From: Candidatus Omnitrophota bacterium
Lineage (GTDB): Bacteria > Omnitrophota > Gorgyraeia > Aquiviventales > Aquiviventaceae
Reading direction: 5' to 3'
NCBI GenBank assembly: GCA_016180575.1
Contig: JACPAY010000008.1
Span: 14,234-78,233, forward strand
Length of the DNA: 64,000 bases
Within the stretch, counting starts at the first letter, position 1; each line of letters begins with the position of its first letter. This document shows, piece after piece, positions 10,306-63,161 of the stretch. Position numbers and translations under genes: made by a program. The notes beneath the pieces were generated by a model. The model saw only the letters and a program-made list of their open reading frames with translations. It had not been told where the DNA came from and did not search any database.

Positions 10306-11381
10306 TGGCCTCCCCCCAGCCGGTGCTCGCCATCACCTGCGGAGATCCCTGCGGGGTCGGGCCGGAAGTGCTCCTCAAGGCGCTTGCGCAGGCGCGTCCG
10401 CCCCGGCGGCTCCGGCTGGCGGTGATCGGCGATCGCATCGTCTTTGAGGAGACGGCCCGGCGGCTCCGGCGCCGGCTTCCCCCGTGGCGGGTGGTCCGCG
10501 CCCCCCAGCGTCCGCGTCCAGGCGATTCCCTCACGCTCATCGATTGCCGCCGCAGCGACCGGTTTGCGCCGGGACGCTCATCGCGGGAGGCCGGGGCGGC
10601 CTCGCTCGCCTACCTCGAGGAGGCGCTTGCGCTCTGGCGCGCCGGCAGCCTGGGGGCGCTCGTGACCGGGCCGGTCACCAAGTGGGCGATCCGCCGCGTG
10701 CGCCCCTCGTTTGTGGGCCAGACGGAGTACCTGGCGCGCGCCATGAGGATCCGCGATGTCGTGATGCTGTTCGTCTCGGACTCTCTGCGGGTGGCGCTCC
10801 TGACCCGCCATATCCCGCTGCGCCGCGTCGCGGCGGCCGTCGACCGGGGGCTCGTGCAGCGCGCGGCGCGCCTCACCGCCGAGGCGCTGTCGGCCGCGTT
10901 TCGGATCCCCCGGCCGCGCCTGGCCCTGTGCGGGATCAACCCGCATGCCGGGGAAGGCGCACCCGCCTCCGAGGAGCGCCGCGTGCTGCTCCCGGCATTG
11001 CGGGCGCTGCGCCGTGAGGGGATCCGCTGCGAGGGGCCGTTCGCGGCGGACGGGCTGTTCGCCTCCCTGAGCGCTGCGCGGCCGCCCTTTGATGCCGTCA
11101 TCTCGCCCTACCATGACCAGGGGCTCATCCCGTTCAAGATGGTCGCCCGAGACCGCGGCTGCCAGATGAGCGTGGGGCTGCCGATCGTCCGCACCGCACC
11201 CGACCACGGAAGCGCCCTGGACATCGCGGGGCGGGGGGTGGCGGATCCCGGCTCGATGCGCTATGCGCTGGAGCTGGCCATGAGGCTGAGCATGTCCCGG
11301 GACCACGTCCCTGTTTCGCCTCCCTTATCCGATGGCGAAAGAGGGACGCGGTCTCCTCATTTGTATGCTGACGGTGCCTGA
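10305..11381 (+). CDS. pdxA: 4-hydroxythreonine-4-phosphate dehydrogenase
   Basis: ORF 10122..11381; ATG at 10305 overlaps the surA stop. Motifs: MASPQPVLAITCGDPCGVGPEV, GQTEYLA, NPHAGE, PDHGSALDIAG. The last ~30 codons run through a repeat element. Confidence 0.9.
   Translation: MASPQPVLAITCGDPCGVGPEVLLKALAQARPPRRLRLAVIGDRIVFEETARRLRRRLPPWRVVRAPQRPRPGDSLTLIDCRRSDRFAPGRSSREAGAASLAYLEEALALWRAGSLGALVTGPVTKWAIRRVRPSFVGQTEYLARAMRIRDVVMLFVSDSLRVALLTRHIPLRRVAAAVDRGLVQRAARLTAEALSAAFRIPRPRLALCGINPHAGEGAPASEERRVLLPALRALRREGIRCEGPFAADGLFASLSAARPPFDAVISPYHDQGLIPFKMVARDRGCQMSVGLPIVRTAPDHGSALDIAGRGVADPGSMRYALELAMRLSMSRDHVPVSPPLSDGERGTRSPHLYADGA
11294..11363 (+). repeat. Family-1 hairpin repeat, copy a (forward)
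   Basis: GTCCCGGGACCACGTCCCTGTTTCGCC-loop-GGCGAAAGAGGGACGCGGTCTCCTCATTTG. 20-bp arms with 2 mismatches. The right end abuts the rsmA ATG at 11365. Confidence 0.8.
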
Positions 11382-12530: not shown

Positions 12531-14063
12531 ATGGCGTCCGGTGAGCTCGCAGCGAAGACGGTTCATGAGCTGCGCGCCCTCATCGCGCGGGGAACGCTCT
12601 CGCCCCTCGACCTGCTCGAGGACCTCCTGGCGCGCATCGAGCGCGTGAATCCCTCGGTGCACGCGTACCTGGCCATTGAGCCGGATCGCCTGCGGCAGCA
12701 GGCCGCCATCCAGCTGCGCGAGGCCCCGCGCGGCGGGCGGCTCCACGGGATTCCCATCACGATCAAGGACAACATCTGCGTCAGGGGCGAGGAGACGAGC
12801 TGCGGGTCGCGCATCCTCGCGGGATTTCGGCCGCCATACGACGCCACGGTGATCGAGCGGCTCCGGCAGGAGGGAGCGCTCATCCTCCCGCGCGCGAACA
12901 TGGATGAGTTCGCGTTCGGCTCCTCGACGGAGAACTCGGCGTTCGGGCCGACGCGCAACCCGCGGGCTTCGGGGCTCGACCGCGTCCCCGGCGGCTCAAG
13001 CGGCGGCTCGGCCGCGGCCGTGGCGGCGGACCTGGCGGTCGCGGCGCTGGGCAGCGACACCGGCGGCTCGATCCGGCAGCCCGCCTCGTTCTGCGGCATC
13101 GTCGGCCTCAAGCCCACCTATGGGCGGGTGTCGCGCTACGGCCTCGTGGCATTCGCCTCCTCGCTCGACCAGATCGGCCCGCTCACCAAAGACGCGGAGG
13201 ACGCGGCCATCCTCCTTTCGGTCATTGCCGGGCATGACCCGCGGGATTCCACCTCGGCGCCCGTCGAGGTGCCCGACTACGGGGCGCTGCTCAAGGAGCC
13301 GCCCAAGGGGCTGACCCTCGGCGTCCCGGCGCTGCCAGGCGCCGAGGGGCTCAGCCCGAATGTCCGCGCGGCGGTCGATCAGGCGCTGGAGGCGTTCCGC
13401 TCGCTCGGGATCAAGACGGTGCCGGTCGAGCTGCCGCACATCGACAAGGCGATCGCGACGTACTACATCATCGCAACCGCCGAGGCCAGCTCCAACCTCG
13501 CGCGGTACGACGGCGTGCAGTACGGCCGCCGAGGCCAGCTCCAACCTCGCGCGGTACGACGGCGTGCAGTACGGGTTCCGCCTGCCTGCCGCGCCGCCGT
13601 CAACGGGAGCCGGCGCGGCGCAGGCAGGGGCCTCCCGCAACTCCCTGATGGACATGTACCTGGACACGCGCAGCCAGGGGTTCGGCGCCGAGGCCAAGCG
13701 CCGCATCCTCCTGGGCACCTACGTCCTCTCGCAGGGCTACTACGACGCGTACTACCTGAAGGGGATGCGGGTGCGCACGCTCATCAAGCAGGGGTTTGAT
13801 GAAGCGCTGAAGCGCTGCGACGCCGTCGTGATGCCGACGGCGCCCACGCCCGCCTTCCGGCTCGGGGAGAAGATCAGCGATCCCCTGGAGATGTACCTCT
13901 CGGACATCTACACGATCTCCGCCAACCTGGCCGGGGTGCCGGCGCTTTCGGTCCCGTGCGGCCGCTCGCCGGAGGGGCTGCCGATCGGGCTGCAGCTCCT
14001 CGCCCGGCCGTTTGAGGAAGCGACGCTGCTCCGGCTGGCCTACGCGTACGAGCAGGCGGCGGC

Positions 14064-20223: not shown

Positions 20224-20313
20224 GGAGTCCGGTTCCCTCTTTCCCATCGGAACACTCGAGGAAACAGGGAACCGGACCCGGGACCATAGGAAAATGGGAC
20301 GTGGTCCCGGGAC
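20217..20313 (-). repeat. Family-1 hairpin repeat, copy b (reverse) plus an adjoining half copy
   Basis: CACATGAGGAGTCCGGTTCCC...GGGAACCGGACCCGGGAC (20217-20284) is about 90% identical to the reverse complement of copy c. GGAAAATGGGACGTGGTCCCGGGAC (to 20313) is a second right arm. The larB TGA lies inside the element end. Confidence 0.8.

Positions 20314-22413: not shown

Positions 22414-22417
<4 letters not shown>
20654..22417 (+). CDS. gspE: Type II secretion / type IV pilus assembly ATPase (GspE/PilB family) with N-terminal T2SSE_N domain and Pro/Ala linker
   Basis: ORF 20573..22417; ATG at 20654 makes an ATGA overlap with the cupin stop. Walker A is GPTGSGKTT, plus Asp/His boxes, Walker B (IIMVGEIRD) and a tetracysteine CPAC...CDKCRGCG. 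Confidence 0.9.
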
Positions 22418-23691
<1,274 letters not shown>

Positions 23692-23702
23692 GCACAACGG
23701 TC

Positions 23703-23769
23703 GAGACAGGAGACAGGGGACAGGGGACCGTCCGGCGGGGCATGTCTCATGTCTCATGTCTCATGTCTC
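23703..23769 (+). repeat. Heptad-repeat-armed hairpin embedding the gspG start codon
   Basis: (GAGACAG GAGACAG GGGACAG GGGAC) at 23703-23728, a 13-nt spacer, then (ATGTCTC)x4 at 23742-23769. The arms are complementary heptad by heptad, with G.U wobbles that pair only in + sense RNA. Confidence 0.85.
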
Positions 23770-24208
23770 AAAAGGAGGCTTTACTCTCGTAGAGCTCTTG
23801 GTGGTGATCGCGATCCTCGGGATCCTCATCAGCCTCGTCACCGCAGGGGCGCAGGCCGCGCGGCGGCGCGGCGCCGTGACGAAGGCGAAGACGACTGTCT
23901 CGGCCCTCGAGACGGCCATCGCGATGTACGAGAGCGACATGGGCGAGTATCCGGCGAGCGGGAACGAGACGCTGGTGGCAGCGCTCCAGGACGATCCGGA
24001 CGACGTCGACTGGGGCGGCCCGTACATGGAGTTCAAGCAGGATGAGCTGGAAGGCGGCGCGCTGCTGGACCCGTGGGGGAACCCCTACGAATATGTCTCG
24101 GTCAACGGCGGCTCCCCGAAGCATCGGGAGCGCTCCTACGACCTCTACTCGCTCGGTCCGAACGAGCAGGACGAGGATGGAGCCGGCGACGACATCTACA
24201 ATTGGTGA
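23756..24208 (+). CDS. gspG: Type II secretion major pseudopilin GspG-like
   Basis: In-frame ATG at 23756 within ORF 23684..24208. Leader MSHVSKGG then FTLVELLVVIAILGIL (prepilin cleavage/methylation motif). GspG-like C-terminus YDLYSLGPNEQDEDGAGDDIYNW. Confidence 0.88.
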   Translation: MSHVSKGGFTLVELLVVIAILGILISLVTAGAQAARRRGAVTKAKTTVSALETAIAMYESDMGEYPASGNETLVAALQDDPDDVDWGGPYMEFKQDELEGGALLDPWGNPYEYVSVNGGSPKHRERSYDLYSLGPNEQDEDGAGDDIYNW

Positions 24209-24218
24209 GCTGACGGCA

Positions 24219-24292
24219 GGGACAAGAGACAGGGGACAGGGGACAGGGGACCGTCCGGCGGGACCCGTCTCATGTCTCATGTCTCATGTCTC
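24219..24292 (+). repeat. Second heptad-repeat-armed hairpin embedding the next pseudopilin start codon
   Basis: GGGACAA GAGACAG (GGGACAG)x2 GGGACC at 24219-24251, the same spacer core CGTCCGGCGGG, then GTCTC(ATGTCTC)x3 at 24267-24292. Confidence 0.85.
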
Positions 24293-24749
24293 AAGACGCT
24301 CGTCTTCCGGCGGGATGACGCTGGTCGAGCTGCTGGTCGTCCTGGGCGTCATCGGCATCATTCTGGCGATCAGCGTGCCGGGCATGGCGGGCTACGCCAG
24401 GCAGCTGCGCCTCAAGACGGCGACCCGGCAAACCGTCGGGCTGCTCTCGCTCGCCCGCAGCCTCGCGATCAGCTCGCGGACGGACCACACGGTGGTCGTG
24501 AACCCGGAGCAGGGGGTGATCCAGATTGTCAACGAGGCCACGGGGGACACGCTCGAGCAGACGGTGCGGCTGCCCTCGTCCGTGACGGTCGAGCTGGAGT
24601 CCGGCGGAGAGCCATCGCAGGAGTTGAGCCTCACGTTCCGTCCCAGCGGCGCCTTGACGGGCCGGACGGTCTTGCTGCGCCTGGCCGATCGGGATAGACA
24701 CCACGCCGTTCAGGTGACAGGCGCCACCGGCGCCGTCAGCGTCCAATGA
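24279..24749 (+). CDS. Minor pseudopilin, GspH/FimT-like
   Basis: In-frame ATG at 24279 within ORF 24042..24749. Leader MSHVSRRSSSGG then MTLVELLVVLGVIGIILAISVPG, followed by a GspH/FimT-like beta region. Confidence 0.8.
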   Translation: MSHVSRRSSSGGMTLVELLVVLGVIGIILAISVPGMAGYARQLRLKTATRQTVGLLSLARSLAISSRTDHTVVVNPEQGVIQIVNEATGDTLEQTVRLPSSVTVELESGGEPSQELSLTFRPSGALTGRTVLLRLADRDRHHAVQVTGATGAVSVQ

Positions 24750-25459: not shown

Positions 25460-28144
25460 ATGGGAGCGCCACGAGCGTTTTTGATCGATGGCACCGCGTT
25501 CTGCTACCGCGCCTTCCACGCGATCCGGGGCTTGAGCACCGCGGACGGGCGGCCGACCAACGCCGTGTACGGCTTTATCCGGATGCTCGACTCGCTCCGC
25601 GAGAAGGAGCGGCCGGACTTCCTGGCCGTCGCCTTCGACGTGGGCAAGCCCACGTTCCGGCATCAGCGGTTTGAGGCCTACAAGGTCCAGCGCAAGCCCA
25701 TGCCGGACCCGCTCATCGCGCAGCTCCCGCTGGTCAAGCGGCTGCTCGAGGCCTCCCGCGTGCCCGTCTTCGAGCGGGAGGGGTACGAGGCCGAGGACGT
25801 CCTGGGCACGATCGCCCGGCGGATCGTCGGCCAGGGGGTGGAGGTGTTCCTGGTAACCGGTGACAAGGATGCGCTTCAGCTCGTCAACAGCCACATCAAG
25901 GTCTACAACCCGCACCGGGAGGAGGCGGCGGTCCTCGACGCCGACGCCGTCCAGGCGCGCTATGGCGTCGGGCCGGAGCGCCTCGTGGACCTGATGGCGC
26001 TGATGGGCGATGCGACCGACAACATCCCCAGCGTCCCCGGCATCGGGGAGAAAACGGCCTCCGGCCTGCTCCAGCGGTTCGGCACCCTCGACGCGCTCTA
26101 CGAGCATCTCGACGAGCTGGAGAGCCCCGCCCGCCGGGCCAGCCTCGCCGCGTCGCGGGACCAGGTGGCGCTCTCGCGGGAGCTGGCCCGGATCGACACG
26201 GAGGTCCCGCTGGACGTCCGGCTCGATGACCTGCGGCCCCGGGAGCCCGATTGGCCGCGCCTTCGCGCCCTCTTGCGGGAGCTGGAGTTCAAGCAGCTGC
26301 TCCAGGCGCTCGATGCCCGCGCCCCAGCCCCTGCCGGGCCCGCAACCGCGGTGCGGGGCCTGACCACGCCCCAGGAGGTCGAGGCATGCCTGCAGCGCCT
26401 TGGCGCCGCCCCGGAGGCGGGGGTCTTTTGCCAGCCGGTTCCGGACGGCATCCTCCTTGCCATGGCCTGCGAGGAGCGCGCCGCGTGGGTGACGGCGCTC
26501 GACCGGGAAACGCTCACTGCTGACACAGGACGTCGGCTCTGCGACTGGCTGGCCGACCCGCGCGCGCCCAAAGTGGCCCATGACGCGAAGGCAATCATGC
26601 GGCTGCTCGCCCGGTTCGGGATCGAGCTGGACGGCATCACGGGCGACCCCATGCTCGCCGCCTACCTCCTGAACCCCGCCCGGACGAACCAGGAGCTGAG
26701 CGACCTCTCGGCGGAGTGGTGTGATGAGCCGCTCGGGGCGCTGCCGAAGCGGCAGGAGCCCTCCGCGTCTCTGGCGCCTGGCCTGTCTGCCGTGCCGAGC
26801 ACGGCACAGGCAGGCGCGGCGGAGCCGTGGGCGCCCGTTGCGCAGCGGGCCTGCGCCATCGTCCGCCTGCACAGGCGGCTGCTCGCGAAGCTCCGCGAAA
26901 ACGGCCTGGAGCCGCTGTACGCGGACCTCGAGCTGCCGCTGCTCCACGTGCTGGCCCGGATGGAGGCCGCGGGGGTGGCGGTGGACCTCAGGCACCTCGC
27001 CGGGCTGAGCGCCTCGATGCAGGCGCAGATGAGTCAGCTCACCACGGAGATCTACCGGCTGGCCGGGACCGAATTCAACCTCAATTCGCCGCGGCAGCTG
27101 GCCCAGGTGCTGTTTGAGCGGCTTGCGCTTCCCGTCGTGAAGCGCACGAAGACGGGCCCCTCCACCGACAGCGACGTGCTGGCCAAGCTGGCCGCCCAGC
27201 ATCCCTTGCCCCAGCAGCTCATCCAGTACCGCGAGCTCTCGAAGCTTGTCTCCACGTATGTGGAGGCGCTGCCCAAGCTCGTGGACCCCGCCACGGGGCG
27301 GCTCCACACCACGTTCAACCAAACCGCCACGGCCACCGGGCGGCTCTCCTCAAGCGACCCCAACCTCCAAAACATCCCGGTCAAGACGGAGCTCGGGCGC
27401 TCGATCCGCAAGGCGTTCATCGCCGGCCTCCCGGACGGGGTGCTGCTCGCCGCCGACTATACCCAGGTTGAGCTGCGCATCCTGGCGCACCTCTCGGGGG
27501 ATGAGCAGCTCGTGGAGGCGTTCCGGAAGGGCCACGACATCCATCGGGTCACCGCCTCGCTCATCTACGGCCTGCCAGAGGAGGCCATCCAGCCGGCGCA
27601 GCGCAACGCGATGAAGGCGGTGAACTTCGGCATCCTCTACGGGATGTCCGCGCGCGGGCTCTCGCAGGAGCTGGGCATCCCGCTCGAGGAGGCCCAGGCG
27701 TTCATCGAGGCCTACTTCCAGCGGTATCCCAAGGTGCGGGCGTACCTGGACAGCCAGATCGAGCGGGCGCGGCGCGACGGCTTCGTCCAGACGCTGCTCG
27801 GCCGGCGCCGGTACATCCCGGAGGTCAACAGCCCCGATGGCATGACCCGGCAGTTCGGCGAGCGGATGGCCATCAATGCCCCGATCCAAGGGACGGCGGC
27901 GGACCTCATCAAGCGGGCGATGGTCCAGCTCGATGAGCGGCTGGCTCGTGAGCGGATGAGCAGCCGCATGGTCCTGCAGGTCCACGACGAGCTGGTCCTT
28001 GAGACCCCGCGCGGGGAGCTGGAGCGGCTCTCCCGCCTCGTGCGGGACACGATGGAAGGCGCCATCGCGCTGGATGTCCCGCTCACGGTCACGCTGAAGG
28101 CCGGCCCCAACTGGCTGGAGCTGTCGGAACTGCCAGGCGCGTAA
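25460..28144 (+). CDS. polA: DNA polymerase I
   Basis: ORF 25460..28144, 894 aa. Has a 5' nuclease domain (LIDGTAFCYRAFHA, GDKDALQL), a 3'-5' exonuclease-like middle and pol motifs (DYTQVELRILAH, RNAMKAVNFGILYG, QVHDELV). Confidence 0.96.
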   Translation: MGAPRAFLIDGTAFCYRAFHAIRGLSTADGRPTNAVYGFIRMLDSLREKERPDFLAVAFDVGKPTFRHQRFEAYKVQRKPMPDPLIAQLPLVKRLLEASRVPVFEREGYEAEDVLGTIARRIVGQGVEVFLVTGDKDALQLVNSHIKVYNPHREEAAVLDADAVQARYGVGPERLVDLMALMGDATDNIPSVPGIGEKTASGLLQRFGTLDALYEHLDELESPARRASLAASRDQVALSRELARIDTEVPLDVRLDDLRPREPDWPRLRALLRELEFKQLLQALDARAPAPAGPATAVRGLTTPQEVEACLQRLGAAPEAGVFCQPVPDGILLAMACEERAAWVTALDRETLTADTGRRLCDWLADPRAPKVAHDAKAIMRLLARFGIELDGITGDPMLAAYLLNPARTNQELSDLSAEWCDEPLGALPKRQEPSASLAPGLSAVPSTAQAGAAEPWAPVAQRACAIVRLHRRLLAKLRENGLEPLYADLELPLLHVLARMEAAGVAVDLRHLAGLSASMQAQMSQLTTEIYRLAGTEFNLNSPRQLAQVLFERLALPVVKRTKTGPSTDSDVLAKLAAQHPLPQQLIQYRELSKLVSTYVEALPKLVDPATGRLHTTFNQTATATGRLSSSDPNLQNIPVKTELGRSIRKAFIAGLPDGVLLAADYTQVELRILAHLSGDEQLVEAFRKGHDIHRVTASLIYGLPEEAIQPAQRNAMKAVNFGILYGMSARGLSQELGIPLEEAQAFIEAYFQRYPKVRAYLDSQIERARRDGFVQTLLGRRRYIPEVNSPDGMTRQFGERMAINAPIQGTAADLIKRAMVQLDERLARERMSSRMVLQVHDELVLETPRGELERLSRLVRDTMEGAIALDVPLTVTLKAGPNWLELSELPGA

Positions 28145-28219
28145 TGTGTAAAGCGTAATGCGTAATGTGACGGAACCTCCTGCGCCGCAGTTGCATTACG
28201 CCTTACGCATTACGCATTG
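28142..28219 (+). repeat. Heptad-repeat-armed hairpin (GCGTAAT-type) between polA and coaE
   Basis: Left arm 28142-28170 (units of GTAATGC/GTAAAGC) and right arm 28191-28219 (GCATTAC GCCTTAC GCATTAC GCATTGA). About 29 bp paired with 2 mismatches and 4 G.U pairs in + sense, and a 20-nt loop. The polA TAA is at the stem base. Confidence 0.8.
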
Positions 28220-28242: not shown

Positions 28243-28881
28243 ATGGTGGTGATCGGCGTCACGGGCGGGGTCGGCACCGGCAAGAGCACCGTCGCCCGGA
28301 TGTTCCAGCGGCTCGGCGCGGTGGTGCTGGACGCGGACGCGCTCGCCCATGAGGCAATGGAGCCGAACCGCCCGGCCTGGCGGCGCATCGTGCGGGCGTT
28401 CGGGAAAGGGATCCTCAACCCGGATCAGACGATCAACCGCAGGCGCCTGGCGCAGCGGGTGTTCCGGGATGCAGAGGCCCGCAGGCGCCTGGAGCGGATC
28501 ATCCATCCGCAGGTGCTGCGGGAGATCCGGCTGCGCATCGGCCGGCTGCGGCGCGCGCGACGCACGCGCGCGGTCGCGCTGGACGTCCCGCTCCTGATCG
28601 AATCGGGTGCTGCGCGGATGGCGGATGCGCTGGTGGTGGTGACGGCACCGCCTGAGGTCCAGCGCCGGCGGGCGCAGCGCCGGCATGGGTGGTCAGCGGA
28701 GGAGACCAAGCGACGGATTCGGGCGCAGTGGGATCTGGCGGCCAAGGCGGCCTTGGCCGATTACGTGGTCGATAATTCGGACGGCGTGGATGCCACGCGA
28801 ACACAGGTGAGACGGATATGGAAACAACTGGTGCCGCACCGCAGCAGCAACAGCAGGCCAAGCTCGACATCGCCGCGCTGA
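28243..28881 (+). CDS. coaE: Dephospho-CoA kinase
   Basis: ORF 28243..28881. [22 protein letters not shown]-loop; DADALAHE. The 3' end overlaps the rho start by 64 nt. Confidence 0.9.
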
Positions 28882-30350: not shown

Positions 30351-30418
30351 GTCCCGGGTCCGGTTCCCGGTTTCCCGGAGTTCTCCGATAGGAAAGCGGG
30401 AACCGGACTCCTCATTTG
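30351..30418 (+). repeat. Family-1 hairpin repeat, copy c (forward)
   Basis: GTCCCGGGTCCGGTTCCCGGTTTCC-loop-GGAAAGCGGGAACCGGACTCCTCATTTG. It ends 1 nt before the prfA ATG. Confidence 0.85.
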
Positions 30419-36171: not shown

Positions 36172-36187
36172 ACGGTGGTGTCTCAAT

Positions 36188-36278
36188 GTGGCGGGTCCTG
36201 CCGCGCCGCCACCCCGTCGGCTGTCCTCGGCCTTCGCCTGCGGGCAGGCGACGGGGTCCCCGGCTCTGCGTCACCCGC
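36188..36278 (+). repeat. Family-2 structured repeat, copy a
   Basis: GTGGCGGGTCCTGCCGCGCCGCCACCCCGTCGG...CGACGGGGTCCCCGGCTCTGCGTCACCCGC. About 90% identical to 55655-55751, with nested stems. Confidence 0.8.
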
Positions 36279-36330
36279 CAAATTGAGTGTTTGGGGTGTC
36301 CCGGTATCCATCTTCTGATAGGGCTGTGGG

Positions 36331-36825: not shown

Positions 36826-37691
36826 CCGAGCAGCTTCTCCGCGCAGCCGATATCGTCGACCGGCTGGAGCCGCAGCTCAAACGGGACATCGACCAGCTCC
36901 GCGCACAGCACGGGAAGGGGCCGCACCTCCGCATCCTCTACTTTACGGACCACTCGCCCTCGATCTTGTTTAAAAACGCGCAAGAAAAGGTCGCGAGGCG
37001 GCTTGGCATCACCCCGGGAACTCAGGGCTGCGATTGGGGGCATGTGACACGTGAAGAGGTGAAACGCGTGATCACGCAATGGAACCGCGACCCGGCGGTC
37101 CACGGAATCTTCGTCCATCAGCCGCTGCCTCCGCAGCTGGACGCTCAGGAGATTTCCACGCTCATTGATCCGCAGAAGGACGTGGAGGGCATCCATCCGC
37201 AAAACTCCGCCAGGCGGTTTTTCGCTAAGGCGCGGATCGGGTCCTGCACGGCGCTCGCGGTCATGGAGCTGATCGACGAGGCGCTCCGGCGGAGCGGGGG
37301 CACGCTGGAAGGCAAGGAGGCCGTGGTCGTCGGGCACAGCGAGATCGTGGGGCGCCCCGTGGGGATGCTGCTGCTGGACCGGCTGGCGACGACGACGGTG
37401 TGCCACGTGGCGACGAAGGCGCTTCAGCAGCACGTGGAGCGGGCGGACGTCCTGGTGGTGGCGGTCGGGCAACCCGAGCTCATCAAGGGCGCGTGGATCA
37501 AACCGGGCGCGGTCGTCATCGACGTCGGCATCAACGTGGTCGGGGGGAAGGTGGTGGGCGATGTGGAGTTCGAGGCCGCCCGCGCGCGCGCGGCCTTCCT
37601 CACGCCGGTCCCCGGCGGGGTGGGCCCGGTCACCGTCATGATGGTGATGAAGAACACCGTGGAAGCGTTCAAGCTCCAACAAAAAGGTTAG
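36822..37691 (+). CDS. folD: Bifunctional 5,10-methylene-THF dehydrogenase / 5,10-methenyl-THF cyclohydrolase
   Basis: In-frame ATG at 36822. VHGIFVHQPLP, DVEGIHP, VVGHSEIVGRPVGMLL, TPVPGGVGPVTVMM. Confidence 0.93.
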   Translation: MTEQLLRAADIVDRLEPQLKRDIDQLRAQHGKGPHLRILYFTDHSPSILFKNAQEKVARRLGITPGTQGCDWGHVTREEVKRVITQWNRDPAVHGIFVHQPLPPQLDAQEISTLIDPQKDVEGIHPQNSARRFFAKARIGSCTALAVMELIDEALRRSGGTLEGKEAVVVGHSEIVGRPVGMLLLDRLATTTVCHVATKALQQHVERADVLVVAVGQPELIKGAWIKPGAVVIDVGINVVGGKVVGDVEFEAARARAAFLTPVPGGVGPVTVMMVMKNTVEAFKLQQKG

Positions 37692-37773
37692 CGTGTTTGC
37701 GCGTTTGCGAGTTTGCGCGTTCGTGTCACGGTAGACTGAACGCGCCAACGCGCCAACGCGCCAACGCGTGAAC
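37691..37773 (+). repeat. Octad-repeat-armed hairpin between folD and metF
   Basis: Left arm GCGTGTTT GCGCGTTT GCGAGTTT GCGCGTTC (37691-37723), right arm (CGCGCCAA)x3 CGCGTGAA (37738-37773). About 33 bp paired, with a T.C mismatch recurring every 8 nt. Ends 5 nt before the metF ATG. Confidence 0.8.
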
Positions 37774-37778
37774 TCAAC

Positions 37779-38663
37779 ATGAGTTTGTCTGAGTCGAATA
37801 GGTTCGAAGCGAAGCTAGGGAAGAAAACGTTCTTAGTCACGATGGAGGTCAACCCGCCGAAGGGGACCGATCTCTCCGAGATCCTGAGCGCGGTGGCGCG
37901 GGTCAAGGGGCTCGTGGACGCCATCAATGTCACCGACGGCTCAGGCGCCATCATGCGCGCCTGTCCCCTGGCGGTGGCGAAGAGCGTGCTGGATGCCGGG
38001 GTGGACCCCATCTTCCAGATGACCTGCCGCGACCGCAACCGCCTCGCGCTGCAGGCGGACCTGCTCGGGGCCGCCATCCTCGGCATCCGGAACGTCCTCC
38101 TGCTCACCGGCGACGACCCGAAAGCCGGGGACCACCCCGACGCCAAGCCGGTCTTTGACATCAACTCCGCCGCGCTCATGCAGGCCGCGAAGGGGCTCGC
38201 CGAGGGCAAGGACATGGCCGGGAAGCCGCTCGCCGGCTCGCCGCAATTCTGCATCGGGGCGGCGGCCGATCCCGGGGCGAAGGACCTCGACGTGGAGCTG
38301 CAGAAGTTCCAGGCCAAGATCGGGGGCGGCGCCGCGTTCTTCCAGACGCAGGCGGTCTTCGATCCCGCGAAGCTGGCGGCCTTCATGGGCCGGGCCAAGC
38401 CGTTCGGCAAGCCGGTGCTGGCGGGGATCCTGCTCGTCAAATCGGCGAAGATGGCGCGCTACATGAACGACCACGTGTGGGGCATCCACGTCCCGGATGA
38501 CCTCATCGCGCGCTTCGAGCGCGCCGCGGACAAGCGGGCGGAGTGCGTGGCCGTGACGACCGAGCTCATCCGCGCCGTCCGGCAGTCGGCGGACGGCATC
38601 CATCTCTACGCCCTCGGCTGGGAGGACCTCGTGCCGGACATCCTGACGAAGGCGCTCGCATGA
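37779..38663 (+). CDS. metF: 5,10-methylenetetrahydrofolate reductase
   Basis: ORF 37779..38663. FLVTMEVNPPKG, AINVTDGSGA, FQMTCRDRNRLALQADLLGA, LLLTGDDP, FFQTQAVFD. Confidence 0.9.
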   Translation: MSLSESNRFEAKLGKKTFLVTMEVNPPKGTDLSEILSAVARVKGLVDAINVTDGSGAIMRACPLAVAKSVLDAGVDPIFQMTCRDRNRLALQADLLGAAILGIRNVLLLTGDDPKAGDHPDAKPVFDINSAALMQAAKGLAEGKDMAGKPLAGSPQFCIGAAADPGAKDLDVELQKFQAKIGGGAAFFQTQAVFDPAKLAAFMGRAKPFGKPVLAGILLVKSAKMARYMNDHVWGIHVPDDLIARFERAADKRAECVAVTTELIRAVRQSADGIHLYALGWEDLVPDILTKALA

Positions 38664-40199: not shown

Positions 40200-40262
40200 T
40201 CCCGGGGACACGTCCATTTTCCCGTCCTCGGCCGAGAGGAAAATAGACGCGTCCCCGCATCG
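40200..40262 (+). repeat. Family-1 hairpin repeat, copy d (forward, divergent right end)
   Basis: TCCCGGGGACACGTCCATTTTCC-loop-GGAAAATAGACGCGTCCCCGCATCG. Ends 1 nt before the gcvPA ATG. Confidence 0.75.
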
Positions 40263-41607: not shown

Positions 41608-43112
41608 TGTCCATGTCGGGTCCCCTTATTTTCGAGCGGTCCGTCCCGGGACGGCGCGGCTACGTCCTGCCTCCGGGCGATGTGCCCGCTGTGCCCGCCG
41701 CTGACGCGCTGCCCGAGGACCAGCTGCGCGCGATCCCTCCGCGCCTGCCCGAGGTCGCGGAGTTCGACGCGGTGCGGCACTACACCCGGCTCTCGCAGGC
41801 CAACTTCTCCGTCGACACCCACTTCTACCCGCTGGGCTCCTGCACGATGAAGTACAACCCGAAGCTCAATGAGCGCATCGCGGCGCTCCCAGGCTTTGCC
41901 TGGCTGCATCCGCTGCAGCCGGCCTCCCAGGTGCAGGGCATCCTGCAGCTCCTCCATGAGCTGGAACAGCTCCTCTGCGCGGTGACCGGCATGGCCGCGT
42001 TCACGCTGCAGCCCGCGGCGGGCGCCCAGGGCGAGCTGACCGGGCTCAAGATCATCGCGGCCTATCACAGGCGCCGCCGGGCGCGGTCCACGATCCTGAT
42101 CCCCGACTCGGCTCATGGGACCAACCCCGCCTCGGCGGCGCTGTCCGGCTTCACCGTGGTCCAGGTCAAGTCCGGGCCGGACGGGCTCATCGACCTGCAG
42201 GAGCTGCGGCGCAAGCTGACGAAGGACGTCGCCGCCCTGATGCTCACCAACCCGAACACGCTGGGGCTCTTCGAGCGGGAGATCAAGACCATCGCAGCGC
42301 TCCTGCACGAGCAGGGGGCGCTGGTCTACATGGACGGCGCGAACATGAACGCGCTGCTCGGCATCTCGCGCCCCGGCGACATGGGGGTGGACCTGCTGCA
42401 ACTGAATCTCCACAAGACGTTCTCCACGCCGCACGGCGGCGGCGGGCCCGGGGCTGGCCCGGTGGGGGTCACAAAGGCGCTGGAGGAGTTCCTGCCGGTG
42501 CCCCGCGTGCGGAAGACGGGCGCCCGGTTCCGGTGGGAGACGCGGGGCCGCGCGACGGTCGGCCGCGTCCACGGGTTTTACGGCAACGTCGGGGTGCTGG
42601 TCCGGGCGTACGCGTACATCCGCACCCTCGGCCGCGAGGGGCTCGCGCGGGCGAGCCGTACCGCGATCATCAACGCGAACTACCTCAAGGCCAAGCTGCA
42701 GGAGGCGTTCCCGGTGCCGTTTGACGACCACTGCATGCACGAGTTCGTCGTGACGCTCAAACCGCTCCTGGCGCATGGCGTCAGCGCCGGGGACGTGGCG
42801 AAGCGGCTGCTCGATTACGGGCACTACGCGCCGACGGTGTACTTCCCGCTCATCGTCGAGGAGGCGCTGATGATCGAGCCGACCGAGACGGAGTCGAGGG
42901 AGACGCTGGACGAGTTCGCCAAGGCGCTCGTCGCCATCGCCCACGAGGCGCAGCACAACCCGGAGCTGGTGCGGCGCGCCCCCCAGCGCATGGTGGTGGA
43001 CCGCGTGGACGAGGTGAAGGCCGCGCGCGAGCCCAACTTACGCTATCACGCCAGTCCCGGGACCGCTTCGGCGCTCCACGCGAGTCCCGGGGACAGGTCC
43101 ATTTTTCCATGA
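41607..43112 (+). CDS. gcvPB: Glycine dehydrogenase (decarboxylating) subunit 2
   Basis: In-frame ATG at 41607. YPLGSCTMKYNP; PLP-lysine context NLHKTFSTPHGGGGPG. The C-terminal ~20 codons run into repeat copy e. Confidence 0.94.
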   Translation: MSMSGPLIFERSVPGRRGYVLPPGDVPAVPAADALPEDQLRAIPPRLPEVAEFDAVRHYTRLSQANFSVDTHFYPLGSCTMKYNPKLNERIAALPGFAWLHPLQPASQVQGILQLLHELEQLLCAVTGMAAFTLQPAAGAQGELTGLKIIAAYHRRRRARSTILIPDSAHGTNPASAALSGFTVVQVKSGPDGLIDLQELRRKLTKDVAALMLTNPNTLGLFEREIKTIAALLHEQGALVYMDGANMNALLGISRPGDMGVDLLQLNLHKTFSTPHGGGGPGAGPVGVTKALEEFLPVPRVRKTGARFRWETRGRATVGRVHGFYGNVGVLVRAYAYIRTLGREGLARASRTAIINANYLKAKLQEAFPVPFDDHCMHEFVVTLKPLLAHGVSAGDVAKRLLDYGHYAPTVYFPLIVEEALMIEPTETESRETLDEFAKALVAIAHEAQHNPELVRRAPQRMVVDRVDEVKAAREPNLRYHASPGTASALHASPGDRSIFP

Positions 43113-43150
43113 CGAGACAATGGGAAAAATAGACCAGTCCTCCTCATTTG
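43054..43150 (+). repeat. Family-1 hairpin repeat, half copy plus copy e (forward)
   Basis: GTCCCGGGACCGCTTCGG (half, from 43054), then GTCCCGGGGACAGGTCCATTTTTCC-loop-GGAAAAATAGACCAGTCCTCCTCATTTG (43084-43150). Confidence 0.8.
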
Positions 43151-44002: not shown

Positions 44003-44994
44003 TCACCACACTCGTCGGCAGCTACCCCAAGGTCGCTGAAGGCGCCTATTCAACCAAGCTCATCGGCGCCATCACGAAGTGGCAGCGCCAGGAAGTGACC
44101 GATGACCAACTGGAGGAGACCTGCCAGGAGATCACCACGGCGGTCATCCGGGAGCAGGAGCAGGCCGGGGTGGACCTGGTCACGGACGGCCAGATCCGCT
44201 GGGAAGACCTGGTGACGCCGATCGCACGGGGGCTGGAGGGCTTTGAGATCAACGGCCTCTCCCGCTGGTTCAACAACAATGTCTACTACCGCCGGCCCAT
44301 CCTGCACAAGGCCCCGGCGCGTCGGCGGCCGATCCTCGCGGACCAGTACCGGTTCGCGGCGCGCGCCGCGACCAGGCCGGTCAAGGCCATCCTGCCGGGC
44401 CCCTACACCTTCGCGGCGCTCTGCGAGGACCGGCATTACAACTCGTTCCGGCGGTTCGCCCTGAAGATGGCCGAGCTCCTGCACGCCGAGGCGCAGGACC
44501 TGGTCAAGGCCGGGGCCCCGCTCGTCCAGTTCGACGAGCCCGCGGTCGGCTTCGGGAAGACCGACCTGAAGCTGGCGGTCGAGGCGCTCGGCGTCGCGGC
44601 GCGCGGGTTGAAGGCGAAGACCGCCGTCTACACGTACTTCGGCTCGCTCGACGGCGGGCTGGCGGCCCTGCAGCGCGCCCCGGTCGATGTGATCGGCCTC
44701 GACGTCGTCTCGGATCCCAAGACGCTGGCGGCGCTGAAGCGGGTGAAGCTCACCAAGGAGATCGCCCTCGGCTGCCTGGACGCGCGGAACACCAAGCTCG
44801 AATCGGTGACCGAGCTGCACGCCCTGTTCGCCGTGGCGGCGAAGCGGGTGCCGCTGGACCGCCTCTACGTCAATCCGAACTGCGGGCTCGAATTCCTGCC
44901 GCACCGCCAGGCGCTTGCCAAGGTCAAGCGGCTGGTCGAGGCGGTGCGCAGCTTCAAACGCGGTATCAGATACCAATCGAAGATTGGTATCTGA
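43999..44994 (+). CDS. MetE-like (cobalamin-independent methionine synthase family) barrel protein lacking the full Zn-ligand set
   Basis: ORF 43999..44994. LVGSYPK, DGQIRWEDLV, ILPGPYTFA, NPNCGLEF. The H-x-C site is replaced (AVYTYFGS). Confidence 0.7.
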   Translation: MITTLVGSYPKVAEGAYSTKLIGAITKWQRQEVTDDQLEETCQEITTAVIREQEQAGVDLVTDGQIRWEDLVTPIARGLEGFEINGLSRWFNNNVYYRRPILHKAPARRRPILADQYRFAARAATRPVKAILPGPYTFAALCEDRHYNSFRRFALKMAELLHAEAQDLVKAGAPLVQFDEPAVGFGKTDLKLAVEALGVAARGLKAKTAVYTYFGSLDGGLAALQRAPVDVIGLDVVSDPKTLAALKRVKLTKEIALGCLDARNTKLESVTELHALFAVAAKRVPLDRLYVNPNCGLEFLPHRQALAKVKRLVEAVRSFKRGIRYQSKIGI

Positions 44995-44999
44995 TACCG
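44961..44999 (+). repeat. Perfect 18-bp inverted repeat (3-nt loop) containing two GGTATCnGATACC palindromes
   Basis: CGGTATCAGATACCAATC-GAA-GATTGGTATCTGATACCG. The upstream stop codon TGA (44992-44994) lies in the second palindrome. SD AAGAGGAGGA follows. Confidence 0.9.
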
Positions 45000-46857: not shown

Positions 46858-46917
46858 GGGGACGCTTCTATTTTTCCAATCGGATGCGTCGGGGAAAAAT
46901 GGAAGTGTCCCCGGGAC
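46851..46917 (-). repeat. Family-1 hairpin repeat, copy f (reverse)
   Basis: CGAATGAGGGGACGCTTCTATTTTTCC-loop-GGAAAAATGGAAGTGTCCCCGGGAC. The panB TGA lies in the element end, and the next gene's ATG (46899) lies in the other arm. Confidence 0.8.
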
Positions 46918-49967: not shown

Positions 49968-50177
49968 GGAGGGGGACCAGGGAGCCCCGCCCAGCGAGGA
50001 AGGGGAGAACAGTGAGCGGGTACCTCGTGCGAGGCCGGAAGGCCGAGCACACGATGCATGAAACTGTCCGCAGCGTTCGAAAGGGGGAGACCAGCCCCGC
50101 CGTAGGCGGGGCGATAGGAGGGGGAAACCGGTTTCCCCCTCCTATGGAGCGTCCCTCGTCTTGACGATAGACGCGAC
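49968..50177 (+). other. Structured non-coding spacer upstream of tRNA-Arg, sharing two sequence blocks with the tRNA(CAT) upstream region
   Basis: Block A is GGAGGGGGACCAGGGAGCCCC (49968-49988). There is a perfect hairpin ATAGGAGGGGGAAACC/GGTTTCCCCCTCCTAT (50114-50155). It is followed by GGAGCGTCCCTCGTCTTGACGATAGACGCGAC up to the tRNA 5' end. Confidence 0.7.
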
Positions 50178-50250
50178 GCGCCCGTAGCTCAGCGGATAGA
50201 GCGCCAGCCTCCGGAGCTGGATGTCGTGGGTTCAAATCCCGCCGGGCGCG
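50178..50250 (+). tRNA. tRNA-Arg (anticodon CCG)
   Basis: Manual cloverleaf: acceptor GCGCCCG/CGGGCGC, D arm GCTC-AGCGGATA-GAGC, anticodon arm CCAGC-CTCCGGA-GCTGG, T arm GTGGG-TTCAAAT-CCCGC. 73 nt, CCA not encoded. Confidence 0.9.
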
Positions 50251-55628: not shown

Positions 55629-55654
55629 GACGCTGTTCTGTCGAAAACCACCGT

Positions 55655-55751
55655 GTGGCCGCGGGTCCTGCCGCGCCGCCACCCCGCCGGCTGTCCTCGG
55701 CCTCGTCGGCCTGCGGGCAGGCGGCGGGGGCCCCGGCTCCGCGTCACCCGC
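55655..55751 (+). repeat. Family-2 structured repeat, copy b
   Basis: GTGGCCGCGGGTCCTGCCGCGCCGCCACCCCGCCGG...CGGCGGGGGCCCCGGCTCCGCGTCACCCGC. A paired C/G here replaces the T/A of copy a in the long-range stem. Confidence 0.8.
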
Positions 55752-55782
55752 GGCGACACTTTTTGAGCAGGCGCTGGAGCCG

Positions 55783-60421: not shown

Positions 60422-60426
60422 GGGAG

Positions 60427-60483
60427 TATCCGTATCTGATACGGTATAATAACATTCTTAGTTTACCGTATCAGATACGGATA
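60427..60483 (+). promoter_or_regulatory. Perfect 20-bp inverted repeat (two CCGTATCnGATACGG palindromes) flanking a TATAAT box upstream of mnmA
   Basis: TATCCGTATCTGATACGGTA (60427-60446) and TACCGTATCAGATACGGATA (60464-60483), with TATAAT at 60445-60450. AT-rich 17-nt spacer. Confidence 0.6.
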
Positions 60484-60490
60484 TGCGGAT

Positions 60491-62444: not shown

Positions 62445-62568
62445 GGAGGGGGACCAGGGAGCCCCACCGGATCGCATGAGCATCAAGACGATTCCTGTTG
62501 GGGCGACCGATAGGGGGGAACCTTGGTTCCCCCCTATGGAGCAGCCCTTGGTTGACGACAGCTGCGAC
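62445..62568 (+). other. Structured non-coding spacer upstream of tRNA(CAT); shares blocks with 49968-50177
   Basis: GGAGGGGGACCAGGGAGCCCC (62445-62465). Hairpin ATAGGGGGGAACC/GGTTCCCCCCTAT (62510-62537). Then GGAGCAGCCCTTGGTTGACGACAGCTGCGAC up to the tRNA 5' end. Confidence 0.7.
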
Positions 62569-62642
62569 GGCGGTGTAGCTCAGCTGGTTAGAGCAGGGGA
62601 ATCATAATCCCAAGGTCGCAGGTTCGAATCCTGCCGCCGCCA
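62569..62642 (+). tRNA. tRNA with anticodon CAT (elongator Met or Ile2; not initiator, since 1:72 is G-C)
   Basis: Manual cloverleaf: acceptor GGCGGTG/CGCCGCC, D arm GCTC-AGCTGGTTA-GAGC, anticodon loop ATCATAA, T arm GCAGG-TTCGAAT-CCTGC. 74 nt, CCA not encoded. Confidence 0.85.
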
Positions 62643-62648
62643 TTCTTC

Positions 62649-63161
62649 ATGATCACAACGACACAACGCCGCGCGTTCACCCTGATCGAGATCCTCGTCG
62701 TGGTGGCCATCGTGGCGCTGCTGGCGACCATCGCGATCCCGCATCTCATCCGCTCGCGCATGGTGGCGAACGAGACGCGGGTCATCGGCCAGCTGCGCGA
62801 GCTGGCCAATGCCCTGATGATGTACCGGGTCGCCAACAACGCCTATCCGGACCAGTGGCAGGCCGACATGTACACCAACGCGGATCCGCACTACGGCCCC
62901 GAGATGTTCAACGTGGACATGCAGGGCGCAGAGTTCATCCAGCAGGGCTACCGGTACCGCTACGCGGATCCGGCCGGGCAGCCGGAGCCCCTGCTGACCT
63001 ACGCCCTCGCCGCGCGGCCGGTCGCGCTGAACCTGACGGGGACGCGGACCATCTGGGTCAATGACACCAATGAGATCTACCACTGCCTGGGGGAGAGCGC
63101 CTCGCCGACCCCTCCCGCCAACGCCACGACGATCAGCCAGGGCCCGCTGGCCTGTCCGTGA
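62649..63161 (+). CDS. Prepilin-type N-terminal methylation-domain protein (pilin / pseudopilin-like)
   Basis: ORF 62649..63161. MITTTQRRA then FTLIEILVVVAIVALLATIAIP, with Ala rather than Gly at -1, and a C-terminal Cys pair. Confidence 0.8.
   Translation: MITTTQRRAFTLIEILVVVAIVALLATIAIPHLIRSRMVANETRVIGQLRELANALMMYRVANNAYPDQWQADMYTNADPHYGPEMFNVDMQGAEFIQQGYRYRYADPAGQPEPLLTYALAARPVALNLTGTRTIWVNDTNEIYHCLGESASPTPPANATTISQGPLACP

Follow-up and report, generated by a model that had tools for sequence, protein, structure and literature searches.

Rickettsia palindromic elements (RPEs), which Ogata and co-workers reportedly described in 2000, are said to be selfish palindromic DNA residing in frame in protein-coding genes; repetitive extragenic palindromic (REP) elements and the related BIMEs serve as precedents for the intercistronic punctuation of RNA, by RNase III sites or by barriers to 3'-5' or 5'-3' exonucleases, and CTCTT repeats in the signal peptides of Neisseria opa genes are associated with phase variation. 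In many bacteria no long simple sequence repeats (SSRs) are more over-represented than those with heptanucleotide units, which have also been reported earlier as inverted pairs. In Xanthomonas, inverted intergenic pairs of the form (GGGAATC)n ... (GATTCCC)n lie near stop codons, are transcribed and have an unknown function (Rehm et al. 2015, PMC4692102), and an excess of heptanucleotides among long SSRs, like the cyanobacterial STRR repeats, is cited there and in PMC4679880. Geobacter metallireducens carries fourfold GGGACCG arrays in 49 copies and fivefold MTYCTGA sites (PMC2700814), Beggiatoaceae carry TAACTGA arrays upstream of start codons (PMC4679880), and in the 5' untranslated region of Haemophilus influenzae hmw1A an (ATCTTTC)n array forms a hairpin that is processed by RNase III (PMC12721329). 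Here we analyse two hairpins built from heptanucleotide arrays at the 5' ends of the pseudopilin genes gspG and gspH in a 64-kb stretch of a Candidatus Omnitrophica/Omnitrophota metagenome-assembled genome (contig JACPAY010000008.1; the whole stretch is called the window below).

A preliminary description of these hairpins knew of no described equivalent, a statement that the Xanthomonas inverted heptamers (PMC4692102) and the hmw1A hairpin (PMC12721329) contradict. Each arm is a tandem array of at least three 7-nt units with a convergent reverse-complement array nearby, with which it can form a stem-loop, and the likeness to Xanthomonas extends to about four units per array and to a position near or overlapping stop codons. 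Unlike Xanthomonas, where a single G-rich, G-quadruplex-forming unit dominates genome-wide, the window has three units and the Omnitrophota clade many unrelated ones, several per genome and mostly not prone to quadruplex formation, and here the element lies in frame inside coding sequence, namely a prepilin leader. With the REP, BIME and REPIN sequences of enterobacteria and pseudomonads (PMC3116915) the hairpins share the form of short dispersed palindromes after stop codons, between co-directional genes and in genome-specific families. The arms of REPs, however, are not tandem repeats, REPINs are tied to RAYT transposases, of which none was seen in the 64 kb of this genome, and REPs are extragenic, whereas the gspG copy lies inside a reading frame that is open in 10 of 10 loci and two further copies, at polA and folD, overlap stop codons. 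As in the Rickettsia elements, the palindrome is in frame and translated at a position that the host protein tolerates; architecture sets the two apart, RPEs being conserved sequences of 100-150 bp and the Omnitrophota elements heptad arrays that are removed when the leader is cleaved.

Closest to the idea of the preliminary description is hmw1A, a gene for a surface structure whose 5' end likewise carries a long hairpin with a heptanucleotide repeat as one arm; that hairpin has a single SSR arm of at least 10 units, is untranslated and phase-variable and has been shown by experiment to act, whereas in Omnitrophota both arms are short arrays, are read as translated and showed no variation in copy number among the contigs compared. 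The Geobacter and Beggiatoaceae arrays are similarly dispersed runs of about 4-5 heptamers within or between genes or before starts, with a regulatory role there proposed but unproven, and according to their descriptions they are mostly direct with one unit per family, in contrast to the paired, inverted, many-unit arrays of Omnitrophota. Our literature searches found no description of such elements in Omnitrophota; two features are new here: a single clade has many different units that turn over, and the element resides in frame inside a leader that is cleaved off. We document the anatomy of the hairpins, the class to which they belong, the conservation of the reading frame through them, their turnover and their lack of strand bias, and conclude that they are probably, as far as sequence comparison can tell, palindromic heptanucleotide-repeat elements with fast turnover that at the pseudopilins are translated within the cleavable leader, and not a dedicated start-codon switch.

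Two stable hairpins with heptad-array arms

The GspG-like and GspH-like pseudopilin genes of the window lie downstream of two genes for E-type ATPases of the type II secretion system (T2SS). The preliminary description had reported one inverted pair of heptad arrays at the 5' end of each pseudopilin gene; re-reading the DNA confirmed its sequences, coordinates and arrays as well as their position:

23703..23728, + strand: hairpin 1, 5' arm, GAGACAG GAGACAG GGGACAG GGGAC, that is (GRGACAG) x3.7, translated as ..RDRRQGTGD
23729..23741, + strand: hairpin 1, spacer CGTCCGGCGGGGC, 13 nt, with a small inner stem (sequence, fold)
23742..23769, + strand: hairpin 1, 3' arm, (ATGTCTC) x4, holding the in-frame ATG 23756 (sequence, Tandem Repeats Finder, fold)
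24219..24251, + strand: hairpin 2, 5' arm, GGGACAA GAGACAG GGGACAG GGGACAG GGGAC(C), that is (GRGACAR) x4.7 (sequence, Tandem Repeats Finder, fold)
24252..24266, + strand: hairpin 2, spacer, with a core CCGTCCGGCGGG common to hairpin 1 (sequence comparison)
24267..24292, + strand: hairpin 2, 3' arm, GTCTC(ATGTCTC) x3, holding the in-frame ATG 24279 (sequence, Tandem Repeats Finder, fold)

Both hairpins are real and stable. All four arrays were reported by Tandem Repeats Finder, with which tandem arrays were called throughout, at 3.7-4.7 copies per arm, and hairpin 2 (24219-24292) is a near copy of hairpin 1, giving the window two copies of the (GRGACAG)n/(ATGTCTC)n family. The 14-mer ATGTCTCATGTCTC, a double heptad, occurs 7 times with at most two mismatches against 0.25 occurrences expected. 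Each region folds as RNA into a single long hairpin, in whose stem 6-bp blocks alternate with 1x1 G.A mismatches, with a minimum free energy of -51.3 kcal/mol for hairpin 1 (z = -5.7) and -59.3 kcal/mol for hairpin 2 (z = -4.1); z-scores were computed against 200 shuffles, none of which was as stable in either case, and the stability claimed previously is thereby borne out. The hairpins are not an assembly artefact, because the same sequence is found in two independent Logan assemblies. At the gathering threshold Rfam finds two tRNAs only in the window, and at E values up to 1 it has no match in 23600-24400. A promoter and terminator scan returned no promoter and no true terminator, its sole hit being a 5-bp stem inside coding sequence, and the U tract of an intrinsic terminator is absent after both hairpins.

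Two further ideas about the hairpins were tried and dropped, the first of them as a general property. The purine arm had been called prone to G-quadruplex formation, but hairpin 1 has just three runs of three or more G, a quadruplex in hairpin 2 would require a 10-nt loop and compete with a hairpin of -48 kcal/mol, and the majority of related unit families are not G-rich. Gene duplication as the origin of the two copies was rejected as well, the flanking coding sequences being dissimilar beyond the generic pilin N-terminus.

An open gspG frame through the hairpin

Both ATG 23756 and ATG 24279, which the preliminary description took for start codons buried by the stems, are indeed in frame with the pseudopilins (GG|FTLVELLVV and GG|MTLVELLVV, respectively, the vertical bar marking the cleavage site), both are paired in the stems, and no Shine-Dalgarno sequence precedes either of them. 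It overlooked, however, that both frames extend further 5' without a stop, that of gspG to ATG 23684, 19 nt ahead of the stem, and that of gspH to ATG 24177. The relevant features are:

22414..23691, + strand: gspE2, second of two tandem T2SS/type IV pilus ATPase genes (Pfam T2SSE, E = 8.7e-138), its start inferred from orthologues of 425-427 aa
23669..23674, + strand: GGGAGA, Shine-Dalgarno-like, inside gspE and 9 nt upstream of ATG 23684 (sequence); motif and spacing are also found in orthologous loci
23684..24208, + strand: gspG prepilin open reading frame (ORF) from the ATG that overlaps the gspE stop codon (TAA, 23689-23691) (Pfam T2SSG, N_methyl)
24177..24179, + strand: in-frame upstream ATG for gspH, within the 3' end of gspG, whose stop codon ends 32 nt further on
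24279..24749, + strand: gspH-like minor pseudopilin, minimal ORF from ATG 24279 (Pfam GspH, N_methyl)

The host genes have the marks of type IV prepilins or pseudopilins: G (or A) at -1, F or M at +1, E at +5, a hydrophobic N-terminal helix, and N_methyl together with T2SSG or GspH domains. Read from ATG 23684, GspG has a 32-aa leader, MDKHNG-[RDRRQGTGDRPAGHVSCLMSHVS]-KGG|F, and the mature protein begins with F (23780); ATG 23756 is an alternative start that gives the short leader MSHVSKGG|F. Mature GspH begins with M (24315), with an in-frame G at -1.

A metagenome scan returned at least ten orthologous loci among the matches listed, and we compared junction DNA from 14 lineages (loci labelled L083-L103). 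In nine hairpin-bearing gspG junctions, or eight independent lineages if the close strains L102 and L103 are counted once, an ATG precedes the end of the gspE stop codon by 7 nt in the pattern GACT-ATG-nnT-RA, with a conserved GGGAGA 9 nt 5' of it. In L100 a Shine-Dalgarno sequence (GGAGGA) and an ATG of its own follow the gspE stop, and the frame from there likewise runs through the hairpin. The reading frame is thus open in 10 of 10 hairpin-bearing gspE-gspG junctions: as far as the G/A|F cleavage site, hairpin included, the mature frame has no stops, against 0-3 in the other two frames. Measured in eight loci, including L091 (82 nt), which has a long leader and no tandem-repeat hairpin, the spacing between the gspE stop and the first codon of the mature protein is 88, 97, 82, 82, 79, 94, 94 and 106 nt, in 8/8 cases 1 mod 3, an agreement with a chance of about (1/3)^8 by phase alone. 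The spacer of the hairpin-free L093, at 13 nt, is also 1 mod 3, and an ATG at the same -7 position starts a 7-aa leader there. The conserved start, open frame and phased spacers thus place the hairpin within leader-coding sequence, as a palindromic, in-frame and stop-free element of the RPE kind.

Of nine unit families no more than two, ATGTCTC and ATGTCGC, contain ATG, which argues that the buried ATG is not a design feature; nor, with ATG in so few families, do homologous elements show the conserved sequestered start codon or Shine-Dalgarno sequence that would mark an RNA thermometer. For gspH the starts vary; an in-frame G at -1 in 12/12 loci indicates that its leader, too, is translated. 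In L097 the sole in-frame canonical start of gspH is an ATG at -38, placed similarly to ATG 24177 near the 3' end of gspG. Judged from the sequence, gspH of the window has two candidate starts, ATG 24177, from which it would read through and which is perhaps the likelier, and ATG 24279 in the 3' arm. Public gene calls for GspG homologues (P0001-P0161) range from 123 to 217 aa, since gene callers pick the upstream ATG, the internal ATG or starts in the mature helix such as LVELLVV and MVVIAIL; many database entries for GspG appear to be mis-started in consequence.

A class of heptad-armed hairpins in the clade

The repeat scan showed two more hairpins of this build in the window, at housekeeping genes:

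28139..28218, + strand: hairpin (GCGTAAT) x4 / (GCATTAC) x3.7 between polA and coaE, -49 kcal/mol, z = -5.1
37687..37771, + strand: hairpin with an 8-nt unit, (GTTTGCGC) x4.4 / (AACGCGCC) x3.8, between folD and metF, -53.2 kcal/mol, z = -5.25

The polA stop codon (28142-28144) lies within the first unit of the former, with the coaE ATG at 28243, and the folD-like stop codon TAG (37689-37691) within the first unit of the latter, with the metF-like ATG at 37779. Both match the pseudopilin hairpins in stability. In all, the window holds four such hairpins with three different units. With a hairpin defined as an array that has a reverse-complement array no more than 110 nt away, 129 kb of non-redundant loci of the Omnitrophota clade contain 19 hairpins of period 7 or 8 against 0 in 10 local shuffles. 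Pseudopilin loci of other phyla, Planctomycetota and Verrucomicrobiota among them, gave no period-7 hairpin in 440 kb; this out-group control came from a scan of contigs with mature GspG, which was dominated by the generic ELLVVIAI pattern and returned distant pseudopilins. A viral scan for (ATGTCTC)3 gave one direct array without an inverted partner, which we regard as irrelevant.

The class has a uniform build, (unit)3.5-6, a loop of 10-60 nt and (reverse-complement unit)3.5-6, with a unit nearly always of 7 nt, and is located at junctions between co-directional genes. L097 has six hairpins in 20 kb, at tsaD-bactofilin, bactofilin-HTH, gspE1-gspE2, gspE2-gspG, gspG-gspH and polA-coaE. Units are diverse (three in the window, at least 12 among relatives), and copies of one family recur within a genome: 23703 and 24219 in the window, including the loop, 4596 and 10433 as well as 5221 and 14367 in L097, and both junctions in L084.

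The G.U pairs had been described as existing only in the sense strand, that is, in the mRNA. The two window hairpins are indeed more stable in the sense strand (-40.6 against -30.7 kcal/mol for hairpin 1 and -48.0 against -31.7 kcal/mol for hairpin 2, with 3-4 G.U pairs), but the class as a whole shows no such bias: when both strands of all 19 hairpins were compared, there were 50 sense versus 57 antisense G.U pairs, and the sense strand was the more stable in 11/19. Mismatches are periodic and identical in every unit (GA,GA,GA or AC,AC,AC), which points to homogenisation within an arm that is faster than correction from arm to arm.

Turnover at orthologous junctions

In a set of 120 GspG homologues, 70-99% identical, the mature N-terminus is invariant and the annotated leaders are wholly different. 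Among the 117 in which leaders were counted, 38 have short ones (e.g. MAERRRA|F, MNERKG|F) and 76 have leaders of at least 20 aa, and 36 of these 76 contain runs of at least three identical residues at an offset of 7, compared with 0-2 at offsets 5, 6, 8 and 9, the signature of translated 7-nt repeats. In the DNA of the 14 lineages, hairpins with unrelated units are found at gspE-gspG and often at gspG-gspH too, with the following arms:

L083: 5' arm GTTTCGC, 3' arm CGCGAAA
L084: 5' arm CAAGACR, 3' arm GAGTCTC
L086: 5' arm GGAGACY, 3' arm ATGTCTC
L092: 5' arm YTCRGGG, 3' arm CCCGAAC
L094: 5' arm GGGGCAT, 3' arm CCCCGCG
L097: 5' arm TGGGCCA, 3' arm CACGGCC
L099: 5' arm GAAGTCG, 3' arm CCACTTC
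L100: 5' arm GGTCGAA, 3' arm CCTTCCA
L102 and L103: 5' arm CAACAAG, 3' arm ATGTCGC

Because hairpins recur at both junctions in most relatives and so many leaders are long, the association with pseudopilins is not a chance local duplication.

Three of the 14 lineages have no hairpins, among them L093, the closest relative (94% GspG identity), where both are absent; the filled leader of the window and the empty one of L093 are too diverged for insertion boundaries to be defined. Clusters of GspG at 90% identity contain members with entirely different or short leaders. L102 and L103, at about 95% nucleotide identity, have the gspG hairpin in common and different families at gspH, the gspG-gspH hairpin of L102 (560-667) being unrelated to that of L103 (640-760) and resembling that of the more distant L099 (842-949), which suggests that a junction cassette may have been exchanged by recombination. 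No copy-number differences were seen within contigs of the same strain (window/L001/L002, L094-96, L086-88, L097/98) or between L102 and L103. The hairpins of the window and L086 are homologous, flanks and loop included, and their 5' arms differ (GRGACAG versus GAGACYG) with no compensating change in the 3' arm.

The gspE2 3' end CGGGAGACCCAAGACTATG (about the last 20 nt; 23660-23691) is nearly invariant at the nucleotide level across L083-L103, whose GspG proteins are 64-81% identical, and combines the gspE C-terminus, the Shine-Dalgarno-like GGGAGA and the gspG start codon. Two stretches of this end, CGGGAGACCCAAGACT, namely GAGAC and CAAGAC, recur as the cores of several units in 5' arms of the gspE-gspG junction, which suggests that the family there may have been seeded in situ.

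Interpretation and alternatives

We interpret the hairpins as copies of one family in a lineage-wide class akin to REPs, RPEs and inverted-heptamer SSRs, and as probably the product of DNA-level turnover rather than as a tuned riboregulator; genome-specific families, copies at several loci, unrelated or empty orthologous junctions and homogenisation within arms all point that way. The ancestral arrangement would have been tight, the gspG ATG overlapping the gspE stop and the leader measuring 5-9 aa. As this leaves no intergenic room, and as the leader, cut off by prepilin peptidase, is the sole tolerant sequence, an element at this junction would come to lie inside the leader, where selection on the host gene would maintain it in frame and stop-free. 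Translation of gspG would then begin at ATG 23684, coupled to gspE termination, and proceed through the hairpin to give the 32-aa leader. The elements may have arisen by slippage and inverted duplication, or by recombinational exchange between very conserved flanks. We infer that any effect on expression, through a hairpin unwound by ribosomes or targeted by RNase III or an exonuclease, would be generic and not specific to pseudopilins; the high occupancy of the junction hints at such an effect, which could take the form of unwinding by the ribosome 19 nt past the start codon, of cleavage by RNase III or of a block to exonucleases.

Several observations weigh against this interpretation. The 3' arm ATGTCTC is identical in the window and L086 while the 5' arm has drifted, and its ATGs could therefore matter. 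The gspE-gspG junction is occupied in about 65% of homologues, compared with roughly 7-27% of average junctions (window, L097), a hint of site-specific benefit or targeting, and the GTCTC-core family persists here even where GspG identity between lineages is down to 71-73%, in the window, L084, L086 and the leaders P0019 and P0013. A mobilising enzyme for the hairpins was not identified, the strand-bias test rests on only 19 hairpins, and ATG 24177 of the window gspH is without a properly spaced Shine-Dalgarno sequence.

The preliminary description read the stems as a dedicated translational gate that hides the true starts, ATG 23756 and ATG 24279. Such a gate would be opened by temperature, a helicase, a protein or the upstream ribosome. 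It is favoured by the in-frame position of the two ATGs and their pairing within very stable stems, by the canonical short leaders that would result (MSHVSKGG|F in the window, MSQRG|F in L086, MSHVATIG|F in L102), by the perfect conservation of the 3' arm between the window and L086, by the extra 10-16 kcal/mol of stability of both window hairpins in the sense strand, and, in gspH of the window, by the fact that ATG 24279 is the sole start not overlapping gspG. We nevertheless consider a gate improbable. Only two of the nine unit families at the gspE-gspG junction hold an ATG, the internal ATGs have no Shine-Dalgarno sequence, the gspE-stop ATG opens a phased, stop-free frame in every hairpin-bearing locus that has it while L100 reads through from its own ATG, and gspH of L097 has no start inside or after its hairpin. 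Nor are the hairpins dedicated to pseudopilins, since similar ones lie at polA-coaE, folD-metF, tsaD-bactofilin and gspE1-gspE2, and they are missing from the closest relative, L093, and from the third prepilin-like gene of the window (62649-63161, directly after a tRNA gene), whose product MITTTQRRA|FTLIEILVV (FTLIEILVVVAIV) has a short leader.

Selection for intercistronic RNA punctuation, with RNase III sites or exonuclease barriers setting cistron stability or translation, for example of the ATPase relative to the major pseudopilin, is unlikely but the strongest of the competing accounts. It would fit stems of 25-35 bp directly after stop codons between co-directional genes, the high occupancy of the pseudopilin junction and the complementarity of arms that is kept despite unit turnover, and it has a precedent in the heptamer-SSR hairpin whose cleavage by RNase III raises adhesin expression (PMC12721329). 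Yet a sense-strand G.U bias is absent, periodic uncompensated mismatches are tolerated, close relatives do without hairpins and have no obvious substitute, and a cut within the gspG hairpin would separate the coding sequence from its conserved start codon. Phase variation, in which slippage by one heptad in the leader-coding sequence would shift the frame off or on and ATG-bearing units would buffer the effect, has the precedent of the hmw1A heptamer SSR (PMC12721329) and would suit 7-nt units, not divisible by 3, that lie in the 5' part of the coding sequence for a surface-filament protein; with just 3.5-5 imperfect units per arm, constant copy number among same-strain contigs and between L102 and L103, and similar hairpins at housekeeping junctions where no frame is involved, we regard it as very improbable. 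There is also a slim chance that the elements are actively generated, exchangeable cassettes, made and moved by a lineage-specific activity such as a hairpin-recognising transposase or recombinase or a template-switching polymerase, and co-opted at the pseudopilins as modules unwound by ribosomes or cleaved by RNase III; through them the making of pseudopilins would depend on how the ATPase gene is translated, and the stoichiometry of filament subunits would be tuned, with the leader as a dedicated landing pad. By contrast with our preferred interpretation of fast-turnover elements, four other readings, as a dedicated gate on the start codon, as a thermosensor, as a G-quadruplex switch or as a phase-variation tract, each appear contradicted or unsupported by the comparisons above.

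Other repeated and structured sequences in the window

Within gatA (amidase), a perfect 49-bp tandem duplication at 13477-13574 shifts the frame; deleting one copy gives an intact GatA frame up to gatB, and the duplication is either an assembly artefact or a recent inactivating event. A separate family of hairpins of about 55 nt occurs at 11299-11355, 20225-20279, 30356-30410, 40203-40257, 43089-43142 and 46858-46912, built as GGGGACnnnTCCnTTTTCC, a 15-nt loop and GGAAAAnnGGAnnnGTCCCC and lying close after stop codons where the flanks were read; behind those at 11299, 30356 and 43089 comes CTCATTTG, with a start codon 1-2 nt further on, and the stems show apparent compensatory differences among copies. 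A GC-rich structured element of about 110 nt, present in two copies at 36180-36290 and 55650-55760 and with no Rfam match at the gathering threshold, reads ..GGGTCCTGCCGCGCCGCCACCCCGyCGGCTGTCCTCGGCC...CTGCGGGCAGGCGrCGGGG.CCCCGGCTC.GCGTCACCCGC. Perfect hairpins of one kind, ATAGGrGGGGAAnCC / GGnTTCCCCyCCTAT, at 50112-50147 and 62510-62540, each with a TTGACG motif after it, lie about 30 nt ahead of the two tRNA genes (50178-50250 and 62569-62642) and may be terminator-plus-promoter modules. AT-rich palindromes at 44961-44999 and 60424-60486 have a common core CGGTATCAGATACCG and lie at a gene 3' end or junction just before the next start codon, the second of them being followed by a short CGGATATG repeat.

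Implications

These results leave unsupported a tempting view of the locus, that of a novel riboswitch or RNA thermometer for pilins, and they explain why gene-caller starts diverge so widely (136-217 aa) for this conserved pseudopilin. With dozens of unit families and rapid turnover at GspG identities of at least 90%, the Omnitrophota clade offers a dense natural experiment, and material for testing whether such hairpins act in the mRNA, through coupling, RNase III or stability, or are genomic passengers. A cleavable prepilin leader, it appears, can serve as a safe harbour for structured repeat DNA.

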